From Podarcis gaigeae (Eukaryota): a DNA stretch of 64,000 bases. The stretch lies in the NCBI GenBank assembly GCA_964106915.2, contig OZ066926.1; one strand, 5' to 3'. A model generated the notes under the pieces. The model made no database searches. It worked only from the letters and a program-made list of their open reading frames with translations, and had not been told where the DNA came from. Position numbers and translations under genes: made by a program. Numbering within the stretch: position 1 is the first letter of the stretch; each line of letters starts with the position of its first letter. Below, piece by piece: positions 3,801 to 60,177 of this stretch.

Positions 3801-6800
3801 AAAAGAAGGGAGACGAATGGAGGGGTCATGGGGAGATGAGATGGTCAGAGAAGGAAGAGGGAGCGTCTTTAACCGAGCTGCAATTTGAAGGGCTGTTGCA
3901 TCTTTAACAGCTTGCCACAAGAACACCACAGCCGCCACGTCTCTGGAGAATCACAGCAGCAGGTTGGTGTCCTTAAAAGCTTAATGTCACCAGCTGCATG
4001 ACGGGTTTTAGGACTAAACCATTCTGAATGTCTCTGCTGATGGAAGGCTATTTTCCTCCAGCAGAACCACACCAGTTCCTCACTCCCAAGTGGCTGCATG
4101 AGCTCATGCTCCCTTGAGCAGCAACGTCTCACTCTACATGGGCAAATCTCTTCTGAAACCAAATGGGAGATTCAAAAGCCTCTTTTGTGAAATAGGGGCC
4201 GGCTGGTCAAAAGAAAGGTTTTTTTTAAAAATCCCAGTGGGTTGGGGCACACTTAAAGCAGCTCTGTGGATCCCAGCCATGGGTGGCAAATGCATGCATA
4301 TGAACCAGGATTTCGGATGGATCCAGAAAGCGACCAGTGGTCATGAGAGATGCTGCCTGTTTGCTAAATTACAGCTGTGCCTCTGCCTGCAAGCAGGATT
4401 TAAACTGCAATCCTAAACCTGAAAGTAAGTCGCAATGATTCCAGTACGTTTTCATTCTAAGAAAGTATGCTTAGGACTGAAGTGCTAACAGAGCTCCATC
4501 TGGATGCAGATCTCCGTCGCAGAAATCCAGACTAAGCCTCTAGTATCTGAACAAATAAGACCTACAAAGGAAAGAGGGAAAAACAGATTCACCCACCAAG
4601 TGCTTTCTTCGCAAGTACTGCTGGCGAAGGACCAGAGGTTTGGCAACCAGCATCCACGGCACACACAGCAATGCTACCACAACCAGGAAGCACTGGAGCC
4701 CTTTCTGTGGGGAACAGAGATGAACGAGTGAGATTATCACCAACAGGCAAGCACATCCAGTTCCCTAAGCCCTCCTGCCTGCGTTTGAGTGAACAACCCT
4801 TTCAGATTCTTTCAGGAAAACTTGCCCACACTTCCCTGTTGCCATAGGGTCTAGAAACTTGCTCTTAAATCAAAACTCATATTCTAAATAATTGCATGAA
4901 TGCTAGCAGGTACAGATGTGTGTGCTCCTGCACAAACCTCACAACAAATGGGAGCTTCTGCATGTTTTCATGTGGTTTGCAAAGGAGTAGTTCTTGCTGA
5001 AATGCCAAGGTTGCAGGTTCGATCCCCATATGGGACAGCTGCATATTTCTGCACTGAAGGGGGTTGAACTAGATGATCCTCAGGATCCTTTCCAATTCTA
5101 GGATTCTTGCCCCTCCCAGCTCAGCAGTAGATTCCCCCCCCCCCACTTAAAGCCAGAACAAGGAAGGCGCTGCTTTCTGCAAAACAGCTCTTGCCCTCAC
5201 CAAACCACCTACCTGTCCCCTATAAAGCATCTTTTCTTTGGGATCATAGGAGAAGAGAAACATGTTGATGAAGTGGATGAGAAGACTTGGTGCATCCATG
5301 GAGTTCTTAGCATCGTAGGCTGTCCACTTATAGAAAATGAGGATGACCAGATAGCCAAACAGCGATGTCATGAAGACTATTTCAGGGATAAAGCCGAGGT
5401 AGATGTTCAGAGGTTTCTTAAAGTAGCTAGAAGATAAGCAAAAAAGGAATTTAAGACCCTGCCTTCAATCAACGGATACAAGAGATATGTCTCCAACCCT
5501 GGAGAGCTGCTGCCAGTCAGTGCAGACCGTACTGTGCTAGGTACACCAAAGGTCTGGGCTCAGTATAAGGCAGCTTTCTATGGTCCTGCATCTTCTCAGC
5601 CTGTCTACTGACTACTAAACTAAAATGAGCACACTCACATGTGATTGAGCAGACTGAGAGAGACGCCAAAGAGCATGTGGATGATGCCCAGAATGACAGA
5701 CATCTTCATCTTGAAGGAGTTGAGGAAGGTCAGCTTGTTGGTGGCGATATTCCAGATCTAGTGCAAAGTGCAAAGACCCAAGTGTGTTCAGAACCAAGGA
5801 AGAGGACAAACAGTGAAACAGCTAAGTACACCCAGACCCATAATATCCTCAGTAACACCCAAAATAATCTGCTCTCCGTAGGAACATTCCTTTTACTTTA
5901 TAAAGCATCCTCGAGACCAAGCATGGCGTGGTGTGTCTTTTAATTTTAAAAATGTTAACCGTGTGGTCATGGCTACAGGAACAACTTTAAGACAGTTTCT
6001 GTGAAAGGCTTTGAGTGTAAAGGATACTCCAAGGATCTGGGTGGATCTCCCTCCCCTGTGTTCTCCACATAATTGAAGGCCTGCCTGTCCCCACTGTAAA
6101 CTTTGGTCTCAACCTTACTGCCCACTAATATACCCTGATGTCAGACTACACAATTTGCACTTTAGGGGTGAGTAACTTCAAGGGCACTTCCGTTCTACAG
6201 CAATGCCACATTTGACTCTTAGCAAATCTGCCTTTCATGCAGAAGGTCCCAGGCTCTCAACCTGCAGCTTCTCTAGGTAGGGCTAGGAGAAATTCCTGCC
6301 TGAAACCCTGGAGAGCTGCTGCCAGTCAGTGTAGGCAGTACTAAGATAGACCGACCAATGGTCTGACTCTGCATGAGGCAGCTTCCTATGTACTTAATTT
6401 GTGAGACAGAGATGTTCTATAGAAAGAGGTACTAGAGTAATTCAGGACTGTAGTCCTTCAGTCTTTTAAAAAAATACTCTCCTACATAAAGAGCTCCCTT
6501 CATAAAGCAACATCAGAAGGGGAACAGTTCAGCACAGCCTCCTCCCTGGTTTACTAAGCTTACTATATGCAGGGAGTTCTTTACATGGTGGTTTCCCAAA
6601 GAGAGACTTAAGAGGAAGTGGCACAGTTCAGAACTCTACCACCCTGATCTACACTTGCTGTTCAAGAAACAAACAGCTCCTCTCGTGAACAGTAGCTGCA
6701 AGGAGGTGCTCTTACCGGATCTATGCCAAAGGGGTATGCCCCGCCGAAGACACCCTCAATGGCAGGATTTAGCTGAAGGCTAGGATATTCCTTGAGAAGA

Positions 6801-36757: not shown

Positions 36758-37183
36758 ATGGCAGACACCACCCTCCAGATCGTTGAGCAGCCAACAGTCT
36801 CTGAGGCCTCAGAGGAGCCAGCAGGTGAGACCGAAGAACCCATCAAATCTGACCAGATCAATGGTGTTATGGTTCTTACCCTTCTGGACAAGATCATCGG
36901 AGCTGTTGATCAGATTCAGCTGACCCAGAGTCAGCTGGAGGAAAGGCAGCAGGAGATGGATGGGGTGGTTTCCAGCATCCAAGGGGAGCTCGCCAAGCTC
37001 ACGAAGGCCCACTCCACCACCAGTAATACGGTCAACAAGATGTTGGAGAAGGTCCGGAAGGTCAGTGTCAACGTCAAAACTGTCCGGCAGAACCTGGAGA
37101 AGCAAGCTGGCCAAATCAAGAAGCTGGAATCTAATGAGGCAGAGCTGCTGAAGCGCAGGAACTTTAAAGTAATGATCTACCAG
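36758..37183 (+). CDS. CAVIN1: Caveolae-associated protein 1 (cavin-1/PTRF), exon 1 CDS (142 aa, DR1 + HR1)
   Basis: Kozak gcaaccATGG; IKSDQINGVMVLTLLDKIIGAVDQIQLTQ...KVRKVSVNVKTVR...RRNFKVMIYQ then CAG/gtaagg donor. Confidence 0.97.
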
Positions 37184-37997
37184 GTAAGGGACCTTTTGAT
37201 CTCTCCCGCTTGTGTCTTTTTCGGTTGGTGCATAAGACCGTCCAGCATGATGGCGCCTCTTGCCTTCTATATGGGGCTTCCCAAAATTCCCATGCTACAG
37301 CACGCCATATATAGGAAATTCAGGACTTGTGTCATCACTGGAATCCTAAAGAGAACAAATGTATTGCCCAATTTTTTTGCGAAGATTCCAGAGTTCGCCT
37401 TAAATGCTACACCAGTGCAAACTTTGCAGGAATTTGCCAAAGAAGCGTAGAGGGAGCTGGGGGGGGGGGGGAGAAATAACCTGTTGTCTCGTGGCAGTAG
37501 AAAGCCATCCAGTGTCCTTAAAGCTACAAAGCCTGGAAATCCCTTTTTCGGTTTGTAAAATGTGCTTATTGGGGCAATCATTTGGGAAAGCAATCTGCAC
37601 ATTTTCACAGTTGTCTGTTAGAGAAGTAGCATTGCAGGGAGCACACTCCAACTCTGCAGGTTTGGTGCTAAGTCAGAGCTCTCTGTCCCTTGGGTCTGTG
37701 CTTTCTACTTTCCCTGCAAAACTAAATCTGATGCAGTGTGGGTTACAGATTCTTTTGGCCCTGACCTTTCAGGCCCTGGAGCTTTTTCACCACTTCAGTG
37801 AGAGGTTGCTTTGTTCTGCTGTTTGCAGTCCTCTTTCTAACACGTTTGCTGGCTAGCCTTACAGACCTCCTAATATCAAACAGTTCAGAATAGGCAGCTC
37901 TGAACCATGCTTCCTATTCTGTGGCGGTCTAGCCTTTAATACCTGTGTTGGAGGAGAAGTGGGACATTATGAGATAGGTTGCCCTGTCCTGTAAGGA

Positions 37998-38000
<3 letters not shown>

Positions 38001-38028
<28 letters not shown>
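38001..38028. repeat. (AC)n microsatellite
   Basis: Direct observation. Confidence 0.9.
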
Positions 38029-41000
38029 GGCTTAGGACAGAAAACCTACAAAAATGTAGCTGCGTCTCTTACTATCGCAACATGAAAGGGGATCTAGTTA
38101 TGTCTGGTTGAGGAATCTGGCAAGTAGCTGACGGATATAGCCCTCTGATTCACGGCTTGAGCATTCTCAATTATATCATGCCTCAAAGGCGGGAATACTC
38201 CAGTATATAAGGGTTATGAACACCACCAAACCAGATTTATAAATACACTTTATCATCGGAAGCCTTGTAGATTATGTTGAGGGAATTTCAGGCCCCACCA
38301 GTAGGAAAATTGTGCAGGAGTGAGGAGAGAGAAATGAAAATGCAGCAACCAACGGAGGAGTGAATAGAAAGGAAAATCTGTCTGTGCTGTTTTACTTTTC
38401 AGGGCATTTTGCAAATATGAACACAGATACTATTTTGGTTGAGATATTTCCTCTCCCTTTTCACTGGAGTTTAGTTATGAGGTGGTGGCAAAATGCTTTT
38501 GGGGTTTTGTGGAAACCAGATCAGCAACCTGATCTTGAATAGGTTCTTGAACAGTGGAGCCTGGGGTTCCAAGATGTGAAGGTGCAGGGATAGTAAACTT
38601 TGGACTCCGTAAAGCACCTTCAGGGTCTGGTTCCCCTAGAATGAACTCAATAGGCAACATGGGTGTGGTTCTGTTAGATGTTGGGTTACTGTGGTGCAGT
38701 ATAGTGGTTAAAGGAATGAGCCAGGAGCTAGTTCAAATTGCAGCTCATCCCTGGGGGAACTGGGTGACAATGCACAGGTAACAAACCTTCAGACCTGCCT
38801 CTGTCATATGGGAATAATAATATTAACTTGTAGTAGAGGATGGTTCTTAATAATTTCTCAGAGAGCCCTGTGTGCAATAGAGAACTCCCATCAAAAGTGC
38901 TATATATACTATATATATATATATATATATATACACTAAGGCTGCAGCCCTATGTGTCCTTACCTGGAACTTGAAGTGAATTACCTTAAACTCAGTGGCA
39001 GTTGTTTCTGTCTAAGCCTGCATAGAATTGGTTTAGCATTGGCATTATAATGTTATTTTCTCAGTGAATACCAGATATTGATCAGATATACAGGAGGTAA
39101 ATTTCTCAGACCATGCAGATAATGGGTTTTCCACCCAACTTGCCATTTTTCCTTTGGCCATTCAAGATATTCAAGGACATCCCAGTAAACTGACATGTCT
39201 TGAATCACAGAAAAAGATAAATAAAATGTAAGGGGTCCTACAAATGTTGGTCCATAAGAAAAATCCCAAAATCCACACTTACTGAAGTGATTATTCAGTG
39301 ATCCTAGTATCACACTACTAGACCAAATGGTATATTCCTTTTTTTATGATGATCGTGTTATTTTCTCATTTCTACCTCATGGTTGGAGACAACAGGGATT
39401 TTCTTGTTTTGGGGGACAATGGGAGGCATGATAAGGATAGAACCACTGGAAAGCCATAAGCCATGCAAATGGAAGCCATTAGTGCCTTTCCTTGTACCTC
39501 CACAAAGCAGCATTCCTTATATGCAGCTGCAATGCTGCCTACTATTTCTATTTGATATGTATTAGATTTTATATCTCACTTTTCCTACAATGGGTTCAGA
39601 GCAGCATGTTAACCTCACAACAATCTTGTGATGTAAGAGAGGCTCGCAGGGGAAACCTGCTGGCATATTCTGATGTCTCATTGAGTTCCACAGGGCTTAC
39701 TCCAAGGACAGCTTGTATAGGATTGCAGCCTGAGGGATGGTGACTTGCTGCAGCCACTCAGATAGCTTCATGACTGAGCTAAGGACCTGAATCCAGGATT
39801 TCCATTTCCAGATATCACACTCTAGCCAGTGCCCCACCATGTTGGCTATCAGTAGGAGTAGCCACCTCATAGTTGCCCATTGTGGAGTGTTGGCATTTTC
39901 CAGTGGCTGAACCATTGGCTGAAATATTGTGAGTCTGGAGTTCATATACCAGCATTGCCCTTAAGAGTCACATGCATATAGTCTCACGTAAACATCATTT
40001 GTTGATTTATCTTTGAAATGGGAATAATGATGGCCAACCCTGCAGGCCTATAGTAAATGAAGGAAATGTAGTGATGGCACAGGGTTGTGGTGGTGTGAAA
40101 ATGAAATTAGACTCACGAAGGGCTTCTGTACACCATAGAGGGCTGCAGGAACAATGATTAAATGCTGCCCTTTGAAGCAAATAGAGAGCAAGCGCTTCCC
40201 TCACACGTAGCCCCATAACACAGTGATTAATCACAATGGACTGTAGGGGGCCTAGGAAAAGCTGGTGGTGTATATACCAGAACCTTGCCCTGTTGCAACA
40301 ACTTTTCAAACAATGGGAGAAAATAAATTTGCTTTCAAAGGGGGATTTTTTCTCACTGAGGTCAGCCTGTACTGTTGCTGTGGATGCTTCTGGCACTGTT
40401 TTGTTTCAGAATTACTCTTGTCTTGCATGCTGAACAGAGCTTGCCATCTGGGCCATCTGGGAGAATTGGGTTGCGCTGCTAAAATACTAACATTCCCTGT
40501 CCTGCAGCTATAGGACTAACACTCTGAAAACTCTCTAGGCAGCAGAGTTTGCAGCCTTCAATCTATGCTTTTGATTCAAGCTTTCAGAGAATCCCATCTA
40601 GGATGACTGAGTGGGGTGGAGGTGGGGCACTATATGAATACTGGGGAGTGGGGTGGCAGAGCAAGTTTGGCGCCATGATCTGGGTGAATTATTACTATCA
40701 ACCACATCAGAGGCGGATGATTTCCTCAGAACTTATTAAAGCAGCTGCTTGCACGGGTGTGACTGTGAACACTGCAGGACGCACTTTCGTTGTTGCTTCA
40801 TGCCCTCATCAGAATTAGCAGATCAACATGCTCCAAGTTTATGCGGCCTGAGTATGGCCTGGTGTTTGCTGAGGCTACTTGAGTACAGGGAGTGAGGACT
40901 GGCAGGCAGGAGTGCCAAGGTCTGCCCTCTACTTCTACTGTGTCCTGTCACCATCACTTTGGTTGTCTCCAAGGCCCAAGCCACCTGACCTTGCCTACAC

Positions 41001-44000
41001 AACTCACACTGCAGCTGACAATGATTCTGTTAAAAAAATAAAAGAGTCTGAAGCGTGTTAGGCAATACCTAGAGCACAGTAGACAGTCCTGAGGAGCCCT
41101 TCTTTAAAAATTTCGAAATAACTGCAGTCTGTATTTGGGCATTTTAATGCATTACACACTCAGGCCTGAGAGTCAAATGTTGGCTGTTTCTTTGAATTCT
41201 CCTTAGGCCACAGCCCTCACTGGCTGTGTTTTGCACCCCAAATATTTTTGCCTGGCTGTAACATGCCCTTCAACTCTGATAATGTCTCTTGCTGGCCTGG
41301 ATGGAGGATAGAGAAGATTTGTGTGATGGGTGTGTAGAAACCAGCCTAGCATACGAAGGTGAAATGTAAATTTGTTCTTCTGCCACTTTTGCCTCTGATC
41401 CCACCCACCATTGCCATCAGGCCCTTGTTCAGAAGGGAATGTGGCCCTCATGCTGAAAGCGTTTCCTCCACCTCTGCAATTACACAATAGCAAACCCTGG
41501 TTTATCACTGAACACAGGTTTGGCATTCATGATTTTGGTACAATACGTCTGCAGAATCTTTACAATTTGAAGGGTGCACACTTAAAACATTGTAGATAAT
41601 ACTCCAAAATGCAATGTGTGAATTGCTCCTTTGTGAAAATAGAATCAGGGTGTGGCAATTGTTCTGGATTTATTCAATCTGGAATGAGTAGGTGGTGTTA
41701 TGAGTACCTCTTGTGCTGACTCCTTGGAAATGCTGCTTGTTTTCCTGCCTGGGTCATTTGGAATTCCAGATCATTCACAGTCATTGACTCCTGTCTTTGG
41801 TAGTGCTGTTTAGATGCCAATGAGATGGAATTATTTTTCCACATCTTTCCGTTATTCCTTGCTTCTCCTCCCTTTGTGTGTGATGGTGGTGGTAGCATCC
41901 TTGGCTTACAGTAAAACAGAGGGGCAGACCCCTTCTCACTTTTAAAGGCAGTGGTGGGAACTTAAGGCAAATAGGAGAAAGAGTTTGTTTTTCTAGATCT
42001 CTGTCTACATTTCCTATTTGTTCCGGCCACATGTAATCTGACAGTTGTACTTACAAACACTCCTATGATTTTGGAAAGAATGCTGAAGAAGCTTTTTTTT
42101 TTTTCGGTGTAAACACAAAAGTGTAGGTGGGTGAGGGAATGACTTTTTCTGCAAGGTGATTGCCATGAATCAAGAGGAAGAGAGAACGATATGGGCTGCC
42201 AAAAACCCATCCTTGATCACCAGAAGCTGCATCCCAAGTCTCCCTTTGGCTGTGAACTACTGTCGGGCTGCCGACACCTCTTCAAACTTTCCAACAGAAC
42301 CACAAGGCAGACAAAATTCTTGGAGATTTTCAGGGTTCTCTTATCTACGCCGTGTATTGAATTCATACACAAAACCTTGAGGACAGTCATTCTTTACTCC
42401 TGTATGCAAGCCCTTCATCTGTTCTGATATATTTACTTCCACACCAATTCCACAAGAGAAGAAGATGGTTCTTCATTTGTCCTATATGTAACAGGAGCAA
42501 AACTGCAGAGAGAACCATGATTTGGCCCAACCTGCAAATGGACTCTGTGATATACATGTGCACCCATGCTCACACACTCGGGCATGTGGTTTGCAGTGTC
42601 AAAGGCTACCTCACCCCACCTATTCTCCCCTCCTCACTTTGGAGTCTACTGTAACACAGCAGCCTCTCTTTGTCAGAAGAACAACTGCAACTCCTAGCTG
42701 CTGCAATGTGCTTTTGATAAATGAGTTTTTGTCCTTCGGTCGTAAAAATCCATCCCAGTTAGAGCCGCAGAAGGCCCTATAAGGCCATGCCTGCGCCCTC
42801 TCCTGGGAGCCAGCTGTGGGATTGTTCTATCTATTTTCGGACTCACTCATGGCCTCAAAGCTGCAGTTCCCCAGTGACACCCAGAGAATTCAGCTTCATG
42901 GTTCCCATCGGCACCATTTAAACAGCAGTATCTCATGATAATCTTTGGCTGCTAGCAAAAAAGGTTACTTTTTCAAATTTCTAAATGAAGAAAAAGCTCT
43001 GTATCTAGATGCATAGCGTTGTTTCTCTGCCCACGTAGAATGCAGAATCTGAAGGATTTATTATTAACATGTTGCTGCTCTTGCTGTTTATTTTAAAGCA
43101 ACTGAGGCTGGAAACATGGCCTTGTTGGAATGCTGTTTGCATTGTCGAAACAGATTGTGCGGTGCAGCAATAAACTGGCTCAGAACAAGGCAGCTTGATG
43201 GAAGGAAGCAACATTTCCCATTGGTATTCAAGATAAGATAAAGTTGGGAAGAGGATAAAAGTGGGGCATGGTGCCATAGTGGTACCTAAGTTGTAACGAC
43301 AGCTACAACAATAATAGTACTTGCGGGCCTACAGAAATAAATGCAGCACACTTTTCAACTGGAAGTAATTACATCTCATTCCAGCCATGAACAAAGTTGT
43401 ATCGTTTGCCAAACTTTAGATATCAAAAGAGCTTGCTATCAATCTCAATGAAATATTTATGGAGCCATTTTATTTCTATCCTCTCAATCAGCATTGTTTA
43501 TCGACTTGCAAATTCAGCAGCCCTTCCTTGAGAACAGGGCAAGTCAAGAAAGCCTTTACATGAAGGATGGGGGCACTGTGGCCCTCCACATGTTGTTTGA
43601 CAACATCTCCCATAATCACTGACAACTGTCCATGGCGCCTGAGGCTGATGGGGCTTGGAGTCTAGCAACATCTTGAGGGTCACAGGTTCCATAGCTGTGT
43701 TTTACTGAACCAGTTTCCTTTGGAGTCCAGAGCACTGGGACCATACGGTAGCTTTGTACACTTTTTCTCTTTCAACAAATGTACAAGCTGAGTAGGCTTT
43801 GCATAGGCACAGGCAATCGGTGCTAATTCCAAAGCAATAGAAGTCTAGCACCCCTAAACCCTGGAGGAAAGAGCACAGCACAGTAATAGTGTATTTTGCA
43901 TGTTCAGTGCCCAGCATATGCAAGCAGAGCTGGGAAAGATTCCTGTCTCCATCCCTGGAGGGTTGCTAAGGCAGTTCCCTGTGTCCCTGAAAACAGCTCT

Positions 44001-45510
44001 TTCACCAAATCAAAAAGTTATTTTACTTTGCCATGCCTTTTGCAACCACTGACATGCAAAACTGATTTTCAGCCCCACCACAATTTTAGAATTGGGTGTG
44101 ACATGACTTTAGACAAAGAGCAGCTGCACTATCCATTAAGCAGGCACCTATTGTTTGACATCAACTGACAGGTTATAACAAGAGAAAGAGGAGCAAGAGA
44201 GAGCACACACATGCACACGCTCTTCACTGTGCTCTCCGGCTATAATACAGTTTGGGACAGTGAGAATTCATCACACTGAGGCTTTACTCACGGGTTTAGC
44301 GCCATGATTTATGTGAGATGGAGAAATGGGAAAGCAAAATTCACCAAAAGTAGAGAAAAGAACAAGTGAAGAAAAGCCATTTGGGGAAGAGATTTGTTAC
44401 CGGAGGAAATATGCAGTCCAAAAAGTACTTTTGCATAAAAGCAGACTGCCCTGAAAAGTTTTATTCTAGGTGCATTTGTCACAAAAGGGAACCAAGCCTA
44501 CCTGTGGTCCTTTGTCAGGCTTCTGGAATAAATTCCAAACCTGACAATGCCTGCAAAACAGAACAAAGACCAGAGCAGGAGGCTTTTGTTGATTTTGTAT
44601 CATGTCGGGGGAAGGAAAAGCAGATTAAACATTTAGAACAGAATGCCACAGGATGTTTAGTCTGCACCTTGAGGCAGATATGGCTTAGGTTGGGGCGTGT
44701 GTGTCTCACTCCACCTTCTGCAGGCTGTCTAGTTGTGAGTTATGAATAGCTTCAGGGAGAAGGAGAAAGAAACTCCGGAATCAGTCAATTGACCTGTTTG
44801 CATTGAAATATGGGATACACATTTGAAGCAGAAAGTGCATTAATTTTCAGAAGGAAATAAAAGTTATTTTTCGGTTGCAAGCTTTTAGGGTTGCAGCACA
44901 ACCTCTTTCCTTTTTATCCCCAAGACCCTCCCTGCCCCTCCAAACAACCTTCAGTATCTGACAGATAAAAGCAGGCACAAATGTGGTCAGGTGAAATGAG
45001 AAAAAGACTAGCATTTACTTCAGTAATGAGGAAGGAAGGCACTTAATAGCGGAACATAGGAAATTCTGAAAAATATCAAATCACAGGAAGGGAAGCCTCT
45101 TGTTTTTGCAGCCTGCAAAAATCAGGGTGGGGTTCTTAAGCACCCGACAGGTCATAACTCATTGGTGGTGGGTTTGTGGTTACCTTGGGTGAATCACAAG
45201 TTCTTCAGACCTGGAATAGCAAGTCACCTGTGGCGAGTAAGAACGGTCCACAGCAAGACAAGAAAGGAAGCTTTCATTTCTTTGTGGGCTGAAAATGCCT
45301 ATTAACATAGGTGTGTGAGAGCAGGGGCCTGTTACTTTTTGGGGGGATGAGGGAATTCTTTGCCCGGCTGCTATGGGCACCTTTGCTTGCGCAACATCCC
45401 TGCTGCCGTGATATTGACTTGGCCTGCGCCTGGCGGCTGTGGCTGTGCTTACCAAGAAGCCTTTGGCTCCCTCGATGGTGCCCACTGATCATTCCTTTTC
45501 CTCATCTTAG

Positions 45511-45741
45511 CCCAAGAGCATCCATGGACCGTCGCCGGAGAGCATGCCCTTTGGCCTTTCACCGGAGAGCATGCCCTTTTTGGAAGACAGTGAGCCTTCT
45601 GAGCCTTCGGAAGAGACTTTGCCTTCTGAGAATGGGCCCTGGCCCCAACCAGCACAGGATGAGAAGGGAGGCAGCCACTCTGGCCCAATGGAGGCAAAGC
45701 CATCCACGGATCATACTGAGCCCCTTCTCCTGAGACTCTGA
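45511..45741 (+). other. Candidate alternative terminal exon of CAVIN1 (76 aa + TGA)
   Basis: Branch-like CTGAT, pyrimidine tract and TAG acceptor; open in phase 0 with exon 1; internal duplications of 27 and 9 nt preserve the frame. Confidence 0.4.
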
Positions 45742-48700
45742 AAGCAGCTGACCAGGCCCCTGCGTAACGGCTGCTGGCCTCATTGAGACCCAGGGCCCTG
45801 CTCCTTCTGCTTGCAGAGAGGTCCTGGTTCGTTTTAGCTTCTTGGTAGACCAGAGGGCGGGGCAGGAGGCTTCTGTTTTAACTATTGTGCGCCTTTTTGC
45901 TGTGTTTGCCTCGCTGCCTCCGGAAGGGAAGGAGAAAAGGAGAGCAGGATACTCAGAGCTCTTGGGTGCTATGCACTGTTCAGTTTGTAATGCAGCTTAC
46001 TGGGAGAAAGGGGGAAAGAGAGGAGGGCCACAAGCTCCACCCTTGGCCCCCACCAACTTTAGCCAAATCATGGCTTCCCATAGCCTTCTCTTAACAATTA
46101 TAGGGCTCTCACAAAAGATCCCTCTGGTACCCCCCCATTTTTCTTACTATAAAGCAGTATAAATATGAAATAATAATTATTATTATTATTATTATTATTA
46201 TTATTTAATTAATTAATTTTGAGCACTGTATGATAGTCTTGAACAAGGTACAGCTTCTCCTGTTGCTTTAGCTTATCTTTCCATGAAAGTGGGAGGGAGT
46301 CTGCAGCCATTTTGAAGCTCAGTGGGAGCGGATTTCGGGCATGAGGAATTCAGAGTATGCTCCAAAGGGCTGCTCATGGATACAATCAAGATTGCATTGC
46401 TCCCTCTTTTTATGATGATTATTTTTATTCCTCAGACTCACTGTAGAAATGATAACGATCAAAACAATGCAACTAAAGAACTAGGTTTCAATCAACAAAA
46501 GCCGGACACGCCCTCTTTCCTCAAATGAATATGTGCTTTTTCTTGCATGCATAGCCTATAGTTGGCTACAAATGTAGATGCTCCTGAGAAATAATTCTAT
46601 GTGGTCTAAAACCCAGGGTGGAGAGTCCTCTCTCTCCACGCCACCTGACTGGCACCATTCCTTTGAGGAATTGTTGTGCTTTACATCCCACTGAGCTGAA
46701 CACAAGGATATATTATATCTTCTTGTCCTCCAGAAACACCCTCTCAGGTCCTCTAGAGCTTCTTTTCTCCTTTTCCCCCTAACATGCTTCGGAACATCAC
46801 CATCTGCTTAACTGCTTGGTTTGGCTACTGCAGTCTTAGGGAGCTGGCAGAAGATGAACTAACAGGTACAAGCAGTCTGAGAATGGCCACAAGCTCTGGA
46901 CACTCCAAGTAGACATTTCCCTGAGGTCAGTGCATGAGAAGGGGTCCGAGTGTTGGTGCCGCCTTGCTTCATGTGTGCTTTGAGCCTGGCAACAGGATCT
47001 ACCTGCTGTATGTTAGCTGGCAAGTGACGTTTTCGAATCTGCCTCACTGTCGTGCAAATTAGTTTGCCCTGGCAAGGTGGCGCATCTTGGCAGAGTCCTG
47101 CCCAAAGCAATGTGTGTGCCAAGGGGTCACGTAAATGGAAATCATCTCCTCTAAGTTTTTGGACAGCATCAAATTCAAGAGGTAGCAAAATTAAAACTGA
47201 ACAAATCATGGGTCTTCTGAAAATCTAAAGTGCATTCTTCAGGGATTGATTTGGGTCCTGAGTATGAAATAATAATGTATATTTGGCAGCCTTTGTACTT
47301 GAGCAAAAGGTTTGAATGAAAGTAATGCTCCTCTTTAACTCAGCTCCACAAAATAAATATTTCATGGGATTTTGAGAGACATCTCTACAAGGTTTTTTTC
47401 TTTTTTCTAATCCACGGATGGGTAATCCCACCCCAGATCTATTCTGGTTCCCTAAAAATACCATATTTGAAATACTGTGGGTTGGTGTTGGACTGCTAGT
47501 TCCTATTGAAATCATTGGGACAGATTGGGCATGTCTTAATGTAAGGCCATTGATTTCAGTGAGAACTAAGCTAACAAACTTTATCTGGAACGTGCTATGT
47601 GTGTATGTGTGTGTGCATCAGCCTTCCCACCAGAAATTTTTGACTGCAAAGCTGAGCCATCCAGCTGTCAAAATTTAAACTGTTGGCTCCTAAGAGCAGA
47701 GGCCTGTCTCCTATAGCTTAGGTTGCCTTGCACAATAACAGTGACTGGAACCATAATAGTAATCCAGCAGGAAGTTCTCCTGAGCAAGCTTTTGTGAAGC
47801 TCCCGAGCTTATGCAGGAGAATATTCTTCATTGTACCTTTTATCTTTGCTGTGCAGAAGTCAGCTACTATAAGGTTTTGCTTTTGTTTGTCTTTTTTAAA
47901 AAGAATGTTCTGTTCAAAGCTCAAAATAGGCCCAGCTTCTTGTCCGAAGAAAAGTTTAGGGGGCCCTAGATCTCTTGCAGCATTTTAACGAACTCCTATT
48001 ATTAAATCAGCTTTGTAAACAAACCCACAAAAAGTTACCAGTCTGTTTTTATTTATTTTAAAAACCCCTTACTAGCCTGCTGGGGACTCACAGAAGAAGC
48101 TGAAAAGAGCTCTGCCCCTCCCGCAGCTGTCCACTGGATTTTTATGGGGTGTATGGAAAAGGAGGGCATCTCCCCTTTGCCAGCCTGCTTGATTTCTGTG
48201 CTGAGCCCAGAGGAGGGAAAGGGTGTGCCATTCTGCCTGAGCCAGCCTACTCATTGTGCTTCATCAAATTCCATGCCTTTGTCTGCATGCAGCTCCTTGT
48301 CACTTATCGCTAGCAGCCAGCAAGTGTTTAAATACAAGGCTGCATTAAATGTAGGTGTGGCCTGCTGTTTTCACACTCAACGACTAGGAATCCTTGTGTT
48401 AGCATTTGCGTTCCCTGAAAGCAGGGCCCAGACTGAGGCTGACCCCATACAGGTAAATGAGTGGGCTGTTCTTCAAGGGTGTGACGCCACTGTGACTTTT
48501 GACAGATGCATATCAAGCAGAAATTCACCCAGATAGGGCTCTTTTCAGCCTTGAGGTCTAGCAATGGGAAAAGGAGGATCCTGTTGAACCTCAAGCCTGC
48601 TGTGCAGCTGTTAAAGGCATATAGAGCCCACGTCAGGTGCAGCAAAGCTGGCAACTGTGTGCTGGATGGACATCCCACATTCCATTTGGCAAAAAGAATG

Positions 48701-50673
48701 AGCAACCTCATATATGCTGTTTCTGGGCAGGTCATCTTGGTAAACTGGAGCGTTTCCTGACCTACGGCTACATTTGCTGCTAGGAAATAAATTTATCATC
48801 TGCCTGATCCCAGTTGTAGGCTTGTTCCAGTTTGGAATTTTAGCTGTCCAACCACACCCTCACTGAGAGAGGAACGCAGATTTCAGATGCTTCTGTAGAG
48901 TGAAGAGCCTCATTATTCTCCTTGCTGGGCATAGGAGGCCCCCTCCTGGCGTATGTGTTTCAAATTCCTGCCTTAATCTCTCCCTCCTGAAGCCGCACCT
49001 AGCGGGCAAGGCCAGGGAGAGGAGGGAGGATGTGGAACAATGAAGTGCTTTGCTATGACTAAGAAGTACAGAATTCACACTCGGCTCCTCTGGAGGCTGG
49101 AGAGGAGCCAGGATCCCAAGCAGATTTCTGTTGCTTCCAAATGCACATTTAAGAAGTCTCCCATACTCTGCTGGTCTGGGATGGACAAGAGTAGAGTTAG
49201 GCAGATGGATAGCTAGATTGTACAGGTGATGAGATCTGTGTCTGTCTAATCTTCATCAAGATTTTAATCTGGAGAAGAGATTGCCCAATTAGGAGCTTGC
49301 TTTGGTCCCAGAAAATTGTTTTTTTGTGTAGTATTCACCCTTGGGTTGGATAAAAATGCCCACTATTTATCACCGTTGTTGTTCTTGTAGAGAATTTATG
49401 GGCTGCCCAAGCTTCCAGGGCAGCACATAGATAAAAGAATAAAACATTACAATAACATTATCTCTCCGGGATGTGTTTCTGTTTCTAGGGGTGATACCTT
49501 TCCCCTACACTGCATGTGCTATATTTTCTTTCTGGGAAAATCAACTTTCCGTTTGGATGAAAGAATGGATGACAAACTATAAATAAATAAAGTGGTTTTC
49601 TTTCCTGCACCCTCCAGAGAACAGCACATCTGTTGTTGCTGCGATTGTAGTGTAGTACCTAGTTGTATCAAATGTCACAGGCATAAGTTTGATATTTGTG
49701 GCAGCAAGCAATGTCACTCTCCCACAGTCCCATCTGCAAACCTTGTGCCATTTTTTTAAAAAAAGTTTGTATTTTCATTCATTCATAATGCAATTAGGGA
49801 TGCAGTCATATGCCTACTAATTTAGTAGGCATTACCCAACAGCATTTCTGAGTAAACATTGAGAGAATTGAACTACAATGCTGTGCATGCTTGCTTAGAG
49901 TAAGCCCAAGTGAGCTCTATGTAATTTGATTTAAACTACATAAGGAAAAGTAATGCAGCTGAGGTGGAATCCTAAACATGCTTCCTAGGAAGTAAAGGCC
50001 AAAGTTGAATTTGCACAGTAGATGTAACAGTGCCCTGATTTTCTTTTTAAAATTAAAAGCATCTATAGAAAGTTGCAAATTTTATCTAAATAATATAGGA
50101 TGAGGAAAGGTGCTTAACATTTAACCCTCCAGCTGTTTTTGCACTCAGAATACCCTCTCCCCCAGCTGCTGTTCCCACACAGGATATGTTTGGCATCCCA
50201 ATTTACATTTTGTGTAGTTTTGGTTTACTAATGAAATAGGGATGAAAGTAGGGAAAGGTTGGTTTTTCATTGGAAAAATGGATAGTAGCTTTTGCTTATT
50301 AAATTTTAATTAATTGGGCCAAAGTCAAGCAATGGGTGGTATTCAACTAAGTTTCACTCTGAGTAGACCCATGGAAATTAGTCATATTCATTAATTTCAG
50401 AGCAAAACCTAGCTGAATACCATCCAATAAATAAAACCCTTTCGATCAGTTGACAGCTCATTTTACAGGTCAAGCAGTACAGCAATGCACCAGTCCAGCA
50501 TAAGAGCTGCTTTTTTAAAAAAGGAAGGAAGGAAGGAAGGGTGAACACAAGCAATGTCACTTCTCCACCAAATCTGTGCCATGCCATTCTTCGAACCTTT
50601 TCTTTCCCATCCATTATTATTTGGAAGCTGAACACTCTCCCTCTTCAGTGCCAGAGTGCACAATAACCCTGGT

Positions 50674-59012: not shown

Positions 59013-59493
59013 CCCTAAACTAGCCTGCCACCATTAGGTTCAGTGGAGGCTGTTGTCCCATCACCAGTGTTGAAATGATTCAATTGCCAGTGCAGGACAT
59101 GGAATGAGGGGCATCACCGTCTCCTTTGCTCCATTCAAGATGTGCACTCTGCAGCCCAAGAAAGCAGCAGTTGCCCGAGCCACCTGCCGGAATTGGCCCA
59201 GATAAACTTCTGGTCACAGGAGCTAAGAGGTTTCCGTACCCCTGGTCTACACTGATCGGCAATAGCTCTACAGAGTTTCAGGTAGGAGATGTTCCCAGCT
59301 TTAGCTGGAGATGCTGGGAATTGAACCTGGGACCTTCTGAGCTTCAGCCCTTCCTCAAGAGAAAAGAGACACTTGTTAGTTGTTGTAGGGAAGAATTGAA
59401 GACTCCTTCAGTGGGGATTGCTTTCTCTCCACAGCACAGGGAATGGGGCAGCCAGCATTAAGAATCTCATGATTTCATTCTTGTGTCTTGCAG

Positions 59494-60177
59494 GATGAGG
59501 TGAAGCTGCCAACAAAGCTGAGCATTAGTAAGTCTTTGAAAGAGGCGGAAAAAGAAGGGGAAGAGGTCGTGGTGGATGAGGAGCACCCTGAAGAGGAACA
59601 TATTGAGCTCTCCTCAGACGAAGAGGTGGAGGTGGAAGAGATTATTGAGGAGTCACGGGCAGAACGCATTAAGAGGAGCGGCATGAGGAGAGTGGATGAC
59701 TTCAAGAAGGCCTTCTCCAAAGAGAAGATGGAGAAGACTAAGGTGAAGACCAGAGAGAACCTGGAAAAGACCAAGGTGAAGACCAGAGAGAACCTGGAGA
59801 AGACCAAGCAGAACCTGGAGAAGACTCGACACAACTTGGAGAAGAGGATGAACAAGTTGGGCACCAAGATTGTCACCAATGAGCGCAGGGAGAAGATGAA
59901 GACCTCCCGGGAGAAGCTGAAGAAGTCCTTCACTCCTGACCACGTGGTCTATGCACGCTCCAAGACAGCTGTCTACAAAGTACCACCTTTCACGTTCCAT
60001 GTCAAGAAGATCCGAGAGGGGGAGGTGGAAGTGAAGGCCACTGAGATGGTGGAGGTTGGTGGGGATGAGGCAGAGAACACAGATCTGATGAGGGGTGAGA
60101 GCCCTGAGATGAGCACCCTCTTGCATATTAAAGAAGAGGCGGACACGATGCTGGCAGACAAGAGTGACAGCGAGTGA
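59494..60177 (+). CDS. CAVIN1: Cavin-1 exon 2 CDS (227 aa + stop; DR2, HR2/UC1, DR3); full protein 369 aa
   Basis: ttgcag acceptor; DEVKLPTKLSISKSLKE...ELSSDEEVEVEEIIEESRAERIKRSG...KSFTPDHVVYARSKTAVYKVPPFTFHVKKIREG...DKSDSE*. Confidence 0.97.
   Translation, partial: DEVKLPTKLSISKSLKEAEKEGEEVVVDEEHPEEEHIELSSDEEVEVEEIIEESRAERIKRSGMRRVDDFKKAFSKEKMEKTKVKTRENLEKTKVKTRENLEKTKQNLEKTRHNLEKRMNKLGTKIVTNERREKMKTSREKLKKSFTPDHVVYARSKTAVYKVPPFTFHVKKIREGEVEVKATEMVEVGGDEAENTDLMRGESPEMSTLLHIKEEADTMLADKSDSE

Follow-up and report, generated by a model that had tools for sequence, protein, structure and literature searches.

CAVIN1 (PTRF) is an essential coat protein of caveolae, and its gene is that of type 4 congenital generalized lipodystrophy (CGL4). 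The full-length protein is arranged as DR1-HR1-DR2-HR2/UC1-DR3. In the papers considered here CAVIN1 is treated as a gene with one product: a 2025 mouse paper describes two exons (PMC12482881), and a 2026 review gives CAVIN1 three exons according to NCBI and states that cavins except Cavin3 have no multiple isoforms (PMC12931049). The available sections of two further sources (PMC10369054, PMC12548152) contain nothing on CAVIN1 isoforms. Shorter cavin1 species have been described on native caveolae, where they were attributed to proteolysis (PMC7875971).

The closest described relatives of a shortened cavin1 are the other cavins and a set of engineered fragments. CAVIN2 and CAVIN3 compete for cavin1, and accessory cavins modulate the coat (PMC12079668). 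The engineered Cavin1(1-155) and Cavin1(1-190) bind PI(4,5)P2 membranes in vitro; Cavin1(1-190) was found to be trimeric or monomeric and to insert into such membranes (PMC9231606). Cavin1(1-330) was cytosolic and made no contact with CAV1, and HR1 was found to promote heteromeric cavin interactions (PMC7875971). In mouse a basic cluster in HR1, comprising K115, R117, K118, K124 and R127, is the site of PI(4,5)P2 binding and of ubiquitylation, and these HR1 lysines also mediate the ubiquitylation and degradation of cavin1 that is free in the cytosol (PMC4603927).

Here we consider the CAVIN1 gene of the lizard Podarcis gaigeae in a window of 64 kb, i.e. the whole stretch of DNA that was analysed. 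The gene lies on the + strand and has two canonical coding exons, both of which match Pfam PF15237. The coding part of exon 1 (36758-37183, +; 426 nt, 142 codons; E 5e-50) encodes DR1 and HR1, ends in phase 0 and is followed by the donor GT at 37184. Contigs covered it in all four of the runs X1, X2, X6 and X7 (see below). The coding part of the canonical last exon (59494-60177, +; 227 codons plus stop; E 1.1e-43) encodes DR2, HR2/UC1 and DR3, and the full-length product has 369 aa. An intron of 22 kb separates the two. Within the canonical last exon a 33-nt tandem repeat of 2.8 copies (59717-59808) encodes the undecad (UC1) repeats of HR2, as expected for CAVIN1. An inverted match of 95 nt with 75% identity was found within the window between 59247-59339 and 6240-6334, which is probably a small repeat element. 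A preliminary description of this DNA had proposed that the intron holds an alternative last exon, which joined to exon 1 would give an HR1-only cavin1.

The intronic exon and its transcripts

The candidate exon begins at 45511. A branch-point-like CACTGAT (45483-45489, +; CTGAT from 45485), which is a candidate on sequence grounds, places its A 23 nt before the exon. It is followed by a polypyrimidine tract (45490-45507) and a TAG acceptor (45508-45510), both on the + strand. From 45511 the frame is open in phase 0 for 76 codons up to a TGA at 45739-45741. All these elements lie where the preliminary description had placed them, and the encoded peptide is identical to the one it gave. Among the 32 intron YAG sites with at least 75% pyrimidine in the preceding 20 nt, 45511 is the only one that opens at least 76 phase-0 codons. 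An 18-nt unit starts at 45535 and again at 45562, which gives a duplication of 27-nt period (45535-45579, +), and a pair of 9-nt period lies at 45592 and 45601; both keep the frame, as had been claimed. The longer duplication corresponds to a nine-residue repeat of the PES-x-P-F-x-L type whose copy number varies in frame. The exon had also been called richer in GC and CpG than the flanking intron. This holds for GC, which amounts to 58% against an intron mean of 44.7%, with one of 96 tiles of 231 nt being as high, but is weak for CpG, which is unremarkable (6 CpG, matched by 12 of the 96 tiles; observed/expected 0.31). In the 1.5-Gb genome the stretch 45511-45741 has one match by DNA and one by protein, both counts being lower bounds; the copy-number check that had been suggested for an LTR or other transposon remnant thus returned a single-copy sequence. 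The reading frames 45311-45733 (+) and 45449-45877 (-), which run over the exon, gave no Pfam match.

Splicing was assessed from assembled contigs of related organisms. Of 24 sequencing runs, 18 are guessed to be RNA and 6 are of unknown kind, none being recorded as RNA; eight of them, all of the guessed kind (X1, X2, X6, X7, X8, X10, X13, X15), were compared with the locus. The junction from 37183 to 45511, which the preliminary description had named as the one to look for, was directly seen in one of these eight runs, X15, which stems from a relative and not from P. gaigeae itself. Its contig (3821 letters, depth 63.6) carries 28 letters from the end of exon 1 and then joins the locus at 45509, the AG being common to both sides. 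A by-eye comparison of the 28 letters with 37154-37181 gave 25 identities, and all three differences fall on third codon positions. Together with the AG the exon 1 side amounts to 30 letters, which is the overlap expected at a branch of the assembly graph, the threshold for a bridge being 31. From the junction onward the contig is continuous and free of joints through the exon and past 47700 (more than 2.1 kb). It lacks exactly 27 nt at 45532, such that the frame is kept. Among the contig substitutions listed inside the frame, four of five change the residue. In the sequence P0049, which is known only from Logan contigs, exon 1 is joined to a rodent tail.

No 37183-45511 joint was listed in the contigs of X1, X2, X6 and X7, and in X2 a contig crosses the 45511 acceptor unspliced. 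The contigs of X8 and X10 begin inside the exon (at 45561 and 45567) and X13 is without exon coverage, such that these runs are uninformative on the junction; the region upstream of the acceptor is uncovered in X8, X10, X13 and X15. For X6 and X7, 25-29% of the words of 45300-46200 were present with no record placed there, and the two were counted neither for nor against the exon. The exon 1 contigs of X1, X6 and X7 end exactly at 37183, and the X2 contig that continues matches to 37184. Both the intron and exon 2 begin with G, so that the stop at 37183 weakly hints at a third continuation of exon 1 that does not start with this letter. A gap of 11 letters in the X10 contig falls, as judged from the depth bins, on the stop codon or next to it (about 45741-45751). 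A second, frame-shifted TGA is found 10 nt past the stop codon, and the C-terminus may differ in the X10 organism.

Contigs cannot reveal RNA ends, and the two candidate 3' ends of the short transcript are ones that we infer. The preliminary description had pointed to ATTAAA at 47190 and AATAAA at 47352. The hexamers are present at these positions, but they do not appear to mark the main end of the transcript: the contigs of X7, X8, X13 and X15 pass both of them, and the longest ends at about 49.4 kb. The 1682 letters of the X15 contig that remain beyond 47700 put its end at about 49382-49447. This fits an AATAAA at 49438-49443 (+), followed by a GT-rich stretch, which is likely to serve as the distal poly(A) signal. 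Most transcripts thus probably end at around 49.4 kb, and judged from the length of the X15 contig the short isoform would have a long 3' UTR of ~3.7 kb (45742-49460, +; end approximate). The AATAAA at 47352-47357 (+) may, with weak support, be a proximal poly(A) signal: the X2 contig (depth 24) ends at 47399, and beyond this end only pieces of depth 2-3 were found, which is compatible with such a signal. X7 covers 46236-48000 (depth 5-11) and otherwise only intron repeats, and X8 covers 45561 onward, which is the pattern that a long 3' UTR would give.

A further signal was seen elsewhere in the intron. In X2 a contig of 3131 letters lies over 41208-44168 with a depth of 148.6, more than 10 times that of the exon 1 contig of the same run (12.6). 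It is preceded by 187 unmatched letters, and a strong pyrimidine tract with an AG ends at 41206. X2 contigs of depth 20 run on over 44263-47399, without splicing at the 45511 acceptor. The signal at 41207-44168 may stem from an independent intronic transcript that is confined to certain tissues, or from a third terminal exon; it was not seen in the contigs of X1, X6 and X7. At 41221-41436 and 43570-43702 the intron contains interspersed, SINE-like repeats, on which many unrelated contigs of X1, X2, X6 and X7 pile up.

Conservation of the tail and database records

When 42 candidate proteins were searched with the 76-aa peptide, a single one matched, the Podarcis muralis record A0A670JJI3 (P0001), whose peptide is 97% identical. 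The record has 218 aa, which is the length that had been given for the HR1-only product. A query with exon 1 returned 246 proteins of 78-249 aa, 120 of which were listed. Among these 120 matches listed, the sequence after MIYQ was an intron read-through in 87, a P-[KE] tail in 25, the canonical exon in 1 and something else in 7. The P-[KE] tails listed came from tegu, gecko, horned lizard, coral snake, two turtles, swift, chicken, wombat and many placentals including human, and a cluster look-up added cobra, painted turtle, mouse, cow and others. A homologous tail at the same exon 1 junction is thus present in five other squamates, in turtles, in a marsupial and in many placentals, and in a shortened form in birds.

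The likeness between the groups was scored with profiles. With a profile of 37 mammal tails all six squamate tails scored above all 1000 shuffles (10.1 bits for P. muralis against a shuffle maximum of 8.4, and 24.7 bits for tegu). For three turtle tails 0, 2 and 83 of 1000 shuffles reached the score, the last of them (P0148) failing to beat its shuffles. A profile of the six squamate tails, in turn, placed 5/5 mammal and 2/2 turtle tails above all 1000 shuffles. As a control we used 27 intron read-through tails, which obtained at most 0.6 bits. A tail profile from seven sequences found 25 proteins among 7992 candidates scored, all of them CAVIN1 records. The swift and chicken tails (P0012, P0020) are 17 and 15 aa long and beat 496/500 and 500/500 shuffles, respectively. 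These two birds keep the P-E-K opening of the exon and then stop, which makes them a natural tail-less version. Frog, fish and four odd records from bird, gecko and marmoset did not match the tail profile (12 of 500 shuffles for medaka, at least 59 for the others); annotated proteins alone were covered, so that absence of the tail outside amniotes is weakly supported. As the scores across groups are modest, the case for homology is built on the profiles combined with the intron, the phase and the first tail residues that the groups have in common.

The shared signature of the tails is a nine-residue repeat, P-E-[ST]-x-P-[FLY]-D-L, and length differences of nine residues occur among squamate and turtle tails. 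The 27-nt duplication of the lizard exon had been presented as internal to it. The duplication is there, but it is not a local accident: it is one unit of an old repeat of variable copy number that is present in other amniotes as well. Turtle tails (P0016, P0021, P0148) carry another nine-residue repeat, of the P-E-N-P-P-S-D-P-A type, in 2 to 5 copies. Mammal tails have 65-70 aa, and those of the placentals compared are 75-90% identical, which is above DR1 (75-87% against 67%, the latter for human-mouse and human-cow). In squamates DR1 is the better conserved of the two (81-88%, versus 59-68% for the tail). An open frame of 65-86 codons with motifs common to squamates and mammals and with in-frame 27-nt indels indicates selection on the peptide. 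We also considered a C-terminal signal of peroxisomal or PDZ type, in the form we assume for these motif classes, and rejected it as a shared function: ends of the L-x-L/F type occur in 6/6 squamate and 2/3 turtle tails and in no mammal or bird tail.

The spliced contig of X15 and the homologous tails across amniotes bear out the alternative last exon that had been proposed, and 45511-45741 (+) is almost certainly the coding part of a real, spliced and conserved alternative last exon of CAVIN1. Isoforms that arise by intronic polyadenylation and alternative last exons are, as far as the sources available to us describe them, generally of the same kind: a skipped-type terminal exon with its own acceptor, stop and poly(A) signal truncates the C-terminus. 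The event as such is ordinary, and it is notable for its age and for the gene. In contrast to such isoforms in general, the CAVIN1 exon is common to squamates, turtles, birds and mammals, and it belongs to a gene that is usually given two exons and no isoforms.

The isoform is present in sequence databases. The short form is recorded for mouse as NP_001346034.1 (isoform 2), for cow as NP_001075200.1 (isoform 1; AAI51569.1) and for human as XP_005257299.1 (isoform X1), besides rat and numerous others; the mouse and cow records are curated (NP_) and the human one is a prediction (XP_). Together with A0A670JJI3 the mouse, cow and human records have the same MIYQ junction, the same phase and a homologous tail at a total length of 216-229 aa, such that they describe the same isoform. 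They are sequence records only, and we found no paper that connects the tails of mammals with those of reptiles or puts a function to the test. A literature search over listings and abstracts of openly available papers found no published study of the CAVIN1 short isoform, although isoform tables in supplements may list it. The earlier statement that no such isoform was known to be described agrees with this literature but not with RefSeq and UniProt. As far as we searched, the short CAVIN1 exon is annotated in databases, apparently unstudied, and at odds with the current review. In RefSeq it is the short form that stands for the Trachemys gene, and it carries the bare gene name. Seven mammal models of 230-512 aa (P0149-P0155) contain the tail, and in five of the seven a visible join fuses it to the canonical last exon. 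The join point differs each time, and the X1 model of Pipistrellus kuhlii is out of frame. These five fused models are probably merges by gene prediction, with minor use of the exon as a cassette in mammals being possible.

The short protein and its possible role

The short product of 218 aa consists of DR1, HR1 and a proline- and acid-rich tail, without HR2/UC1 and DR3. HR1 residues 29-138 match the solved structure 4QKV (E 6.6e-51). A five-model structure prediction gave one long helix over residues 31-140 and a pLDDT below 50 over most of 147-211, i.e. a tail that is predicted to be unstructured. The PI(4,5)P2 cluster is present with all five residues, K98, R100, K101, K107 and R110 corresponding in this order to the mouse residues given above. 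The tail encoded by 45511-45741, which is disordered by prediction, has a net charge of -10 and contains 20% Pro in contrast to 3% in the canonical DR2; it has no match in Pfam, PDB or the ESM Atlas. Within PF15237 the short form, with HR1 and the basic cluster but without HR2 and DR3, counts as an incomplete cavin: it is an isoform rather than a caveola-forming member of the family. It has a calculated mass of about 24-25 kDa, and its junction peptide as well as two long peptides from the tail are unique.

Compared with full-length CAVIN1, the exon 1 part (DR1, the HR1 trimer region and the PI(4,5)P2/ubiquitylation cluster) is identical. The short form lacks DR2, HR2/UC1 and DR3, and hence residues that have been shown to be required for caveola formation (PMC7875971). 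Cavin1(1-155) and Cavin1(1-190) have the same domains up to HR1 and an acidic disordered stretch; the short form differs from these engineered fragments in being natural and conserved and in having a tail and 3' UTR of its own. By analogy to the behaviour of the published fragments it is expected to form trimers and to attach to membranes, but to be unable to make caveolae. The proposed action would resemble that of CAVIN2, CAVIN3 and CAVIN4, in that the short form would join cavin1 and regulate the coat. Unlike these it is not the product of a separate gene, its HR1 is that of cavin1 itself, and it has no HR2, which they possess.

From this we propose the following mechanism. Splicing of exon 1 to the alternative last exon at 45511 would yield the short cavin1 protein, and that this protein is functional is very likely. 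Its HR1 does not differ from the one in full-length cavin1, and by means of it the short form would enter cavin trimers and bind PI(4,5)P2; made from a common promoter in cells that also produce full-length cavin1, it would be drawn into full-length trimers. Without HR2/UC1 and DR3 it presumably cannot form caveolae itself, and each short copy in a trimer would remove one set of C-terminal contacts (the HR2/DR3 arms) that cross-link the coat. The choice of the last exon would thereby tune the number or stability of caveolae by tissue, while also lowering the full-length output. On balance we favour the reading that the 45511 exon gives a 218-aa short cavin1 that acts as an accessory, coat-loosening subunit, the loosening being the step that we infer. 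Because free cytosolic cavin1 is degraded via its HR1 lysines (PMC4603927), the short protein may be scarce. A wider proposal must be held more tentatively, being plausible but short of probable: amniotes including humans would make an overlooked fifth subunit of the cavin coat, HR1-only and tissue-switched, that enters trimers, caps or loosens the coat and brings along a tail of repeated proline motifs.

If this proposal is true, coat assembly would have a built-in regulator in the form of a second product that has been retained since reptiles and mammals parted. The fifth subunit would be hidden from C-terminal antibodies and from cDNA rescue experiments, and it would be lost in exon 1 knockouts and exon 1 CGL4 alleles and spared by exon 2 alleles, such that the interpretation of alleles, knockouts and antibodies would change. 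In human, variants as far as codon 157 affect both forms and those of the canonical last exon the long form alone; variants in the alternative last exon are currently filed as intronic. Some of the shorter cavin1 species on native caveolae could also be explained by the short isoform.

The coat-loosening explanation would be compatible with a more active part of the tail. The tail may be a docking strip, in which the HR1 trimer carries three copies of a repeated hydrophobic-P-[FLY]-D-L motif and of proline-rich motifs to PI(4,5)P2 membranes or caveolae and there recruits an adaptor of the SH3/WW or endocytic type. All squamate (6/6) and mammal (8/8) tails tested contain the hydrophobic-P-[FLY]-D-L motif, 1-3 times each, the length of mammal tails is tight, and zebrafish Cavin4b is reported to recruit Bin1 via a proline-rich stretch (PMC8513623). 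However, the motif is missing in 3/3 turtle and 2/2 bird tails, the lizard tail has one PxxP, few basic residues and a degenerate motif copy, and the tail has no match in the databases named above; we consider docking doubtful. The short bird tails and the lack of the motif in turtles suggest that what counts is less the tail than the absence of the C-terminal half. That birds retain the exon despite having nearly no tail, and that the 3' UTR is so long, would also suit an exon that serves as a regulated exit, diverting transcripts from full-length CAVIN1 into a short protein that is unstable and does little. Unanchored cavin1 is indeed ubiquitylated in HR1 and degraded (PMC4603927), and 58% of the alternative-exon tail is P/E/D/S/T. 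The canonical DR2, however, is similarly PEST-rich (47-53%), such that the composition of the tail says little, and the conserved frame, shared motifs and in-frame indels point to selection on the peptide. An exit without a useful product is therefore improbable.

It is very unlikely that the short form acts off caveolae in the nucleus or cytosol, e.g. as PTRF does in the release of Pol I transcripts. In 8/8 mammals and in chicken the junction creates a basic pattern that resembles what we take to be a bipartite NLS, but 6/6 squamates, 3/3 turtles and the swift are without it; the pattern thus cannot be a shared function and is inapplicable to this window. Scarcely credible is a non-functional exon, be it splicing noise into a transposon remnant or, as the preliminary description had offered as its alternative, a 79-nt poison cassette that uses a GTGAGC donor-like site at 45590-45595 (+). 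This site is present, and in five of the seven longer models from databases the mammal tail is fused to exon 2, yet no two of these joins coincide. All four runs that cover the site (X2, X8, X10, X15) read through it with neither a joint nor a loose end at 45589, as far as contigs, which drop rare forms, can tell. The stop of such a cassette would fall just inside the last exon, and a stop inside the last exon is not a usual substrate of decay. An origin as a transposon or LTR remnant was rejected: the exon has a single genomic match by DNA and by protein (lower bounds) and no Pfam match, and each of the 25 proteins retrieved with the tail profile is a CAVIN1 record.
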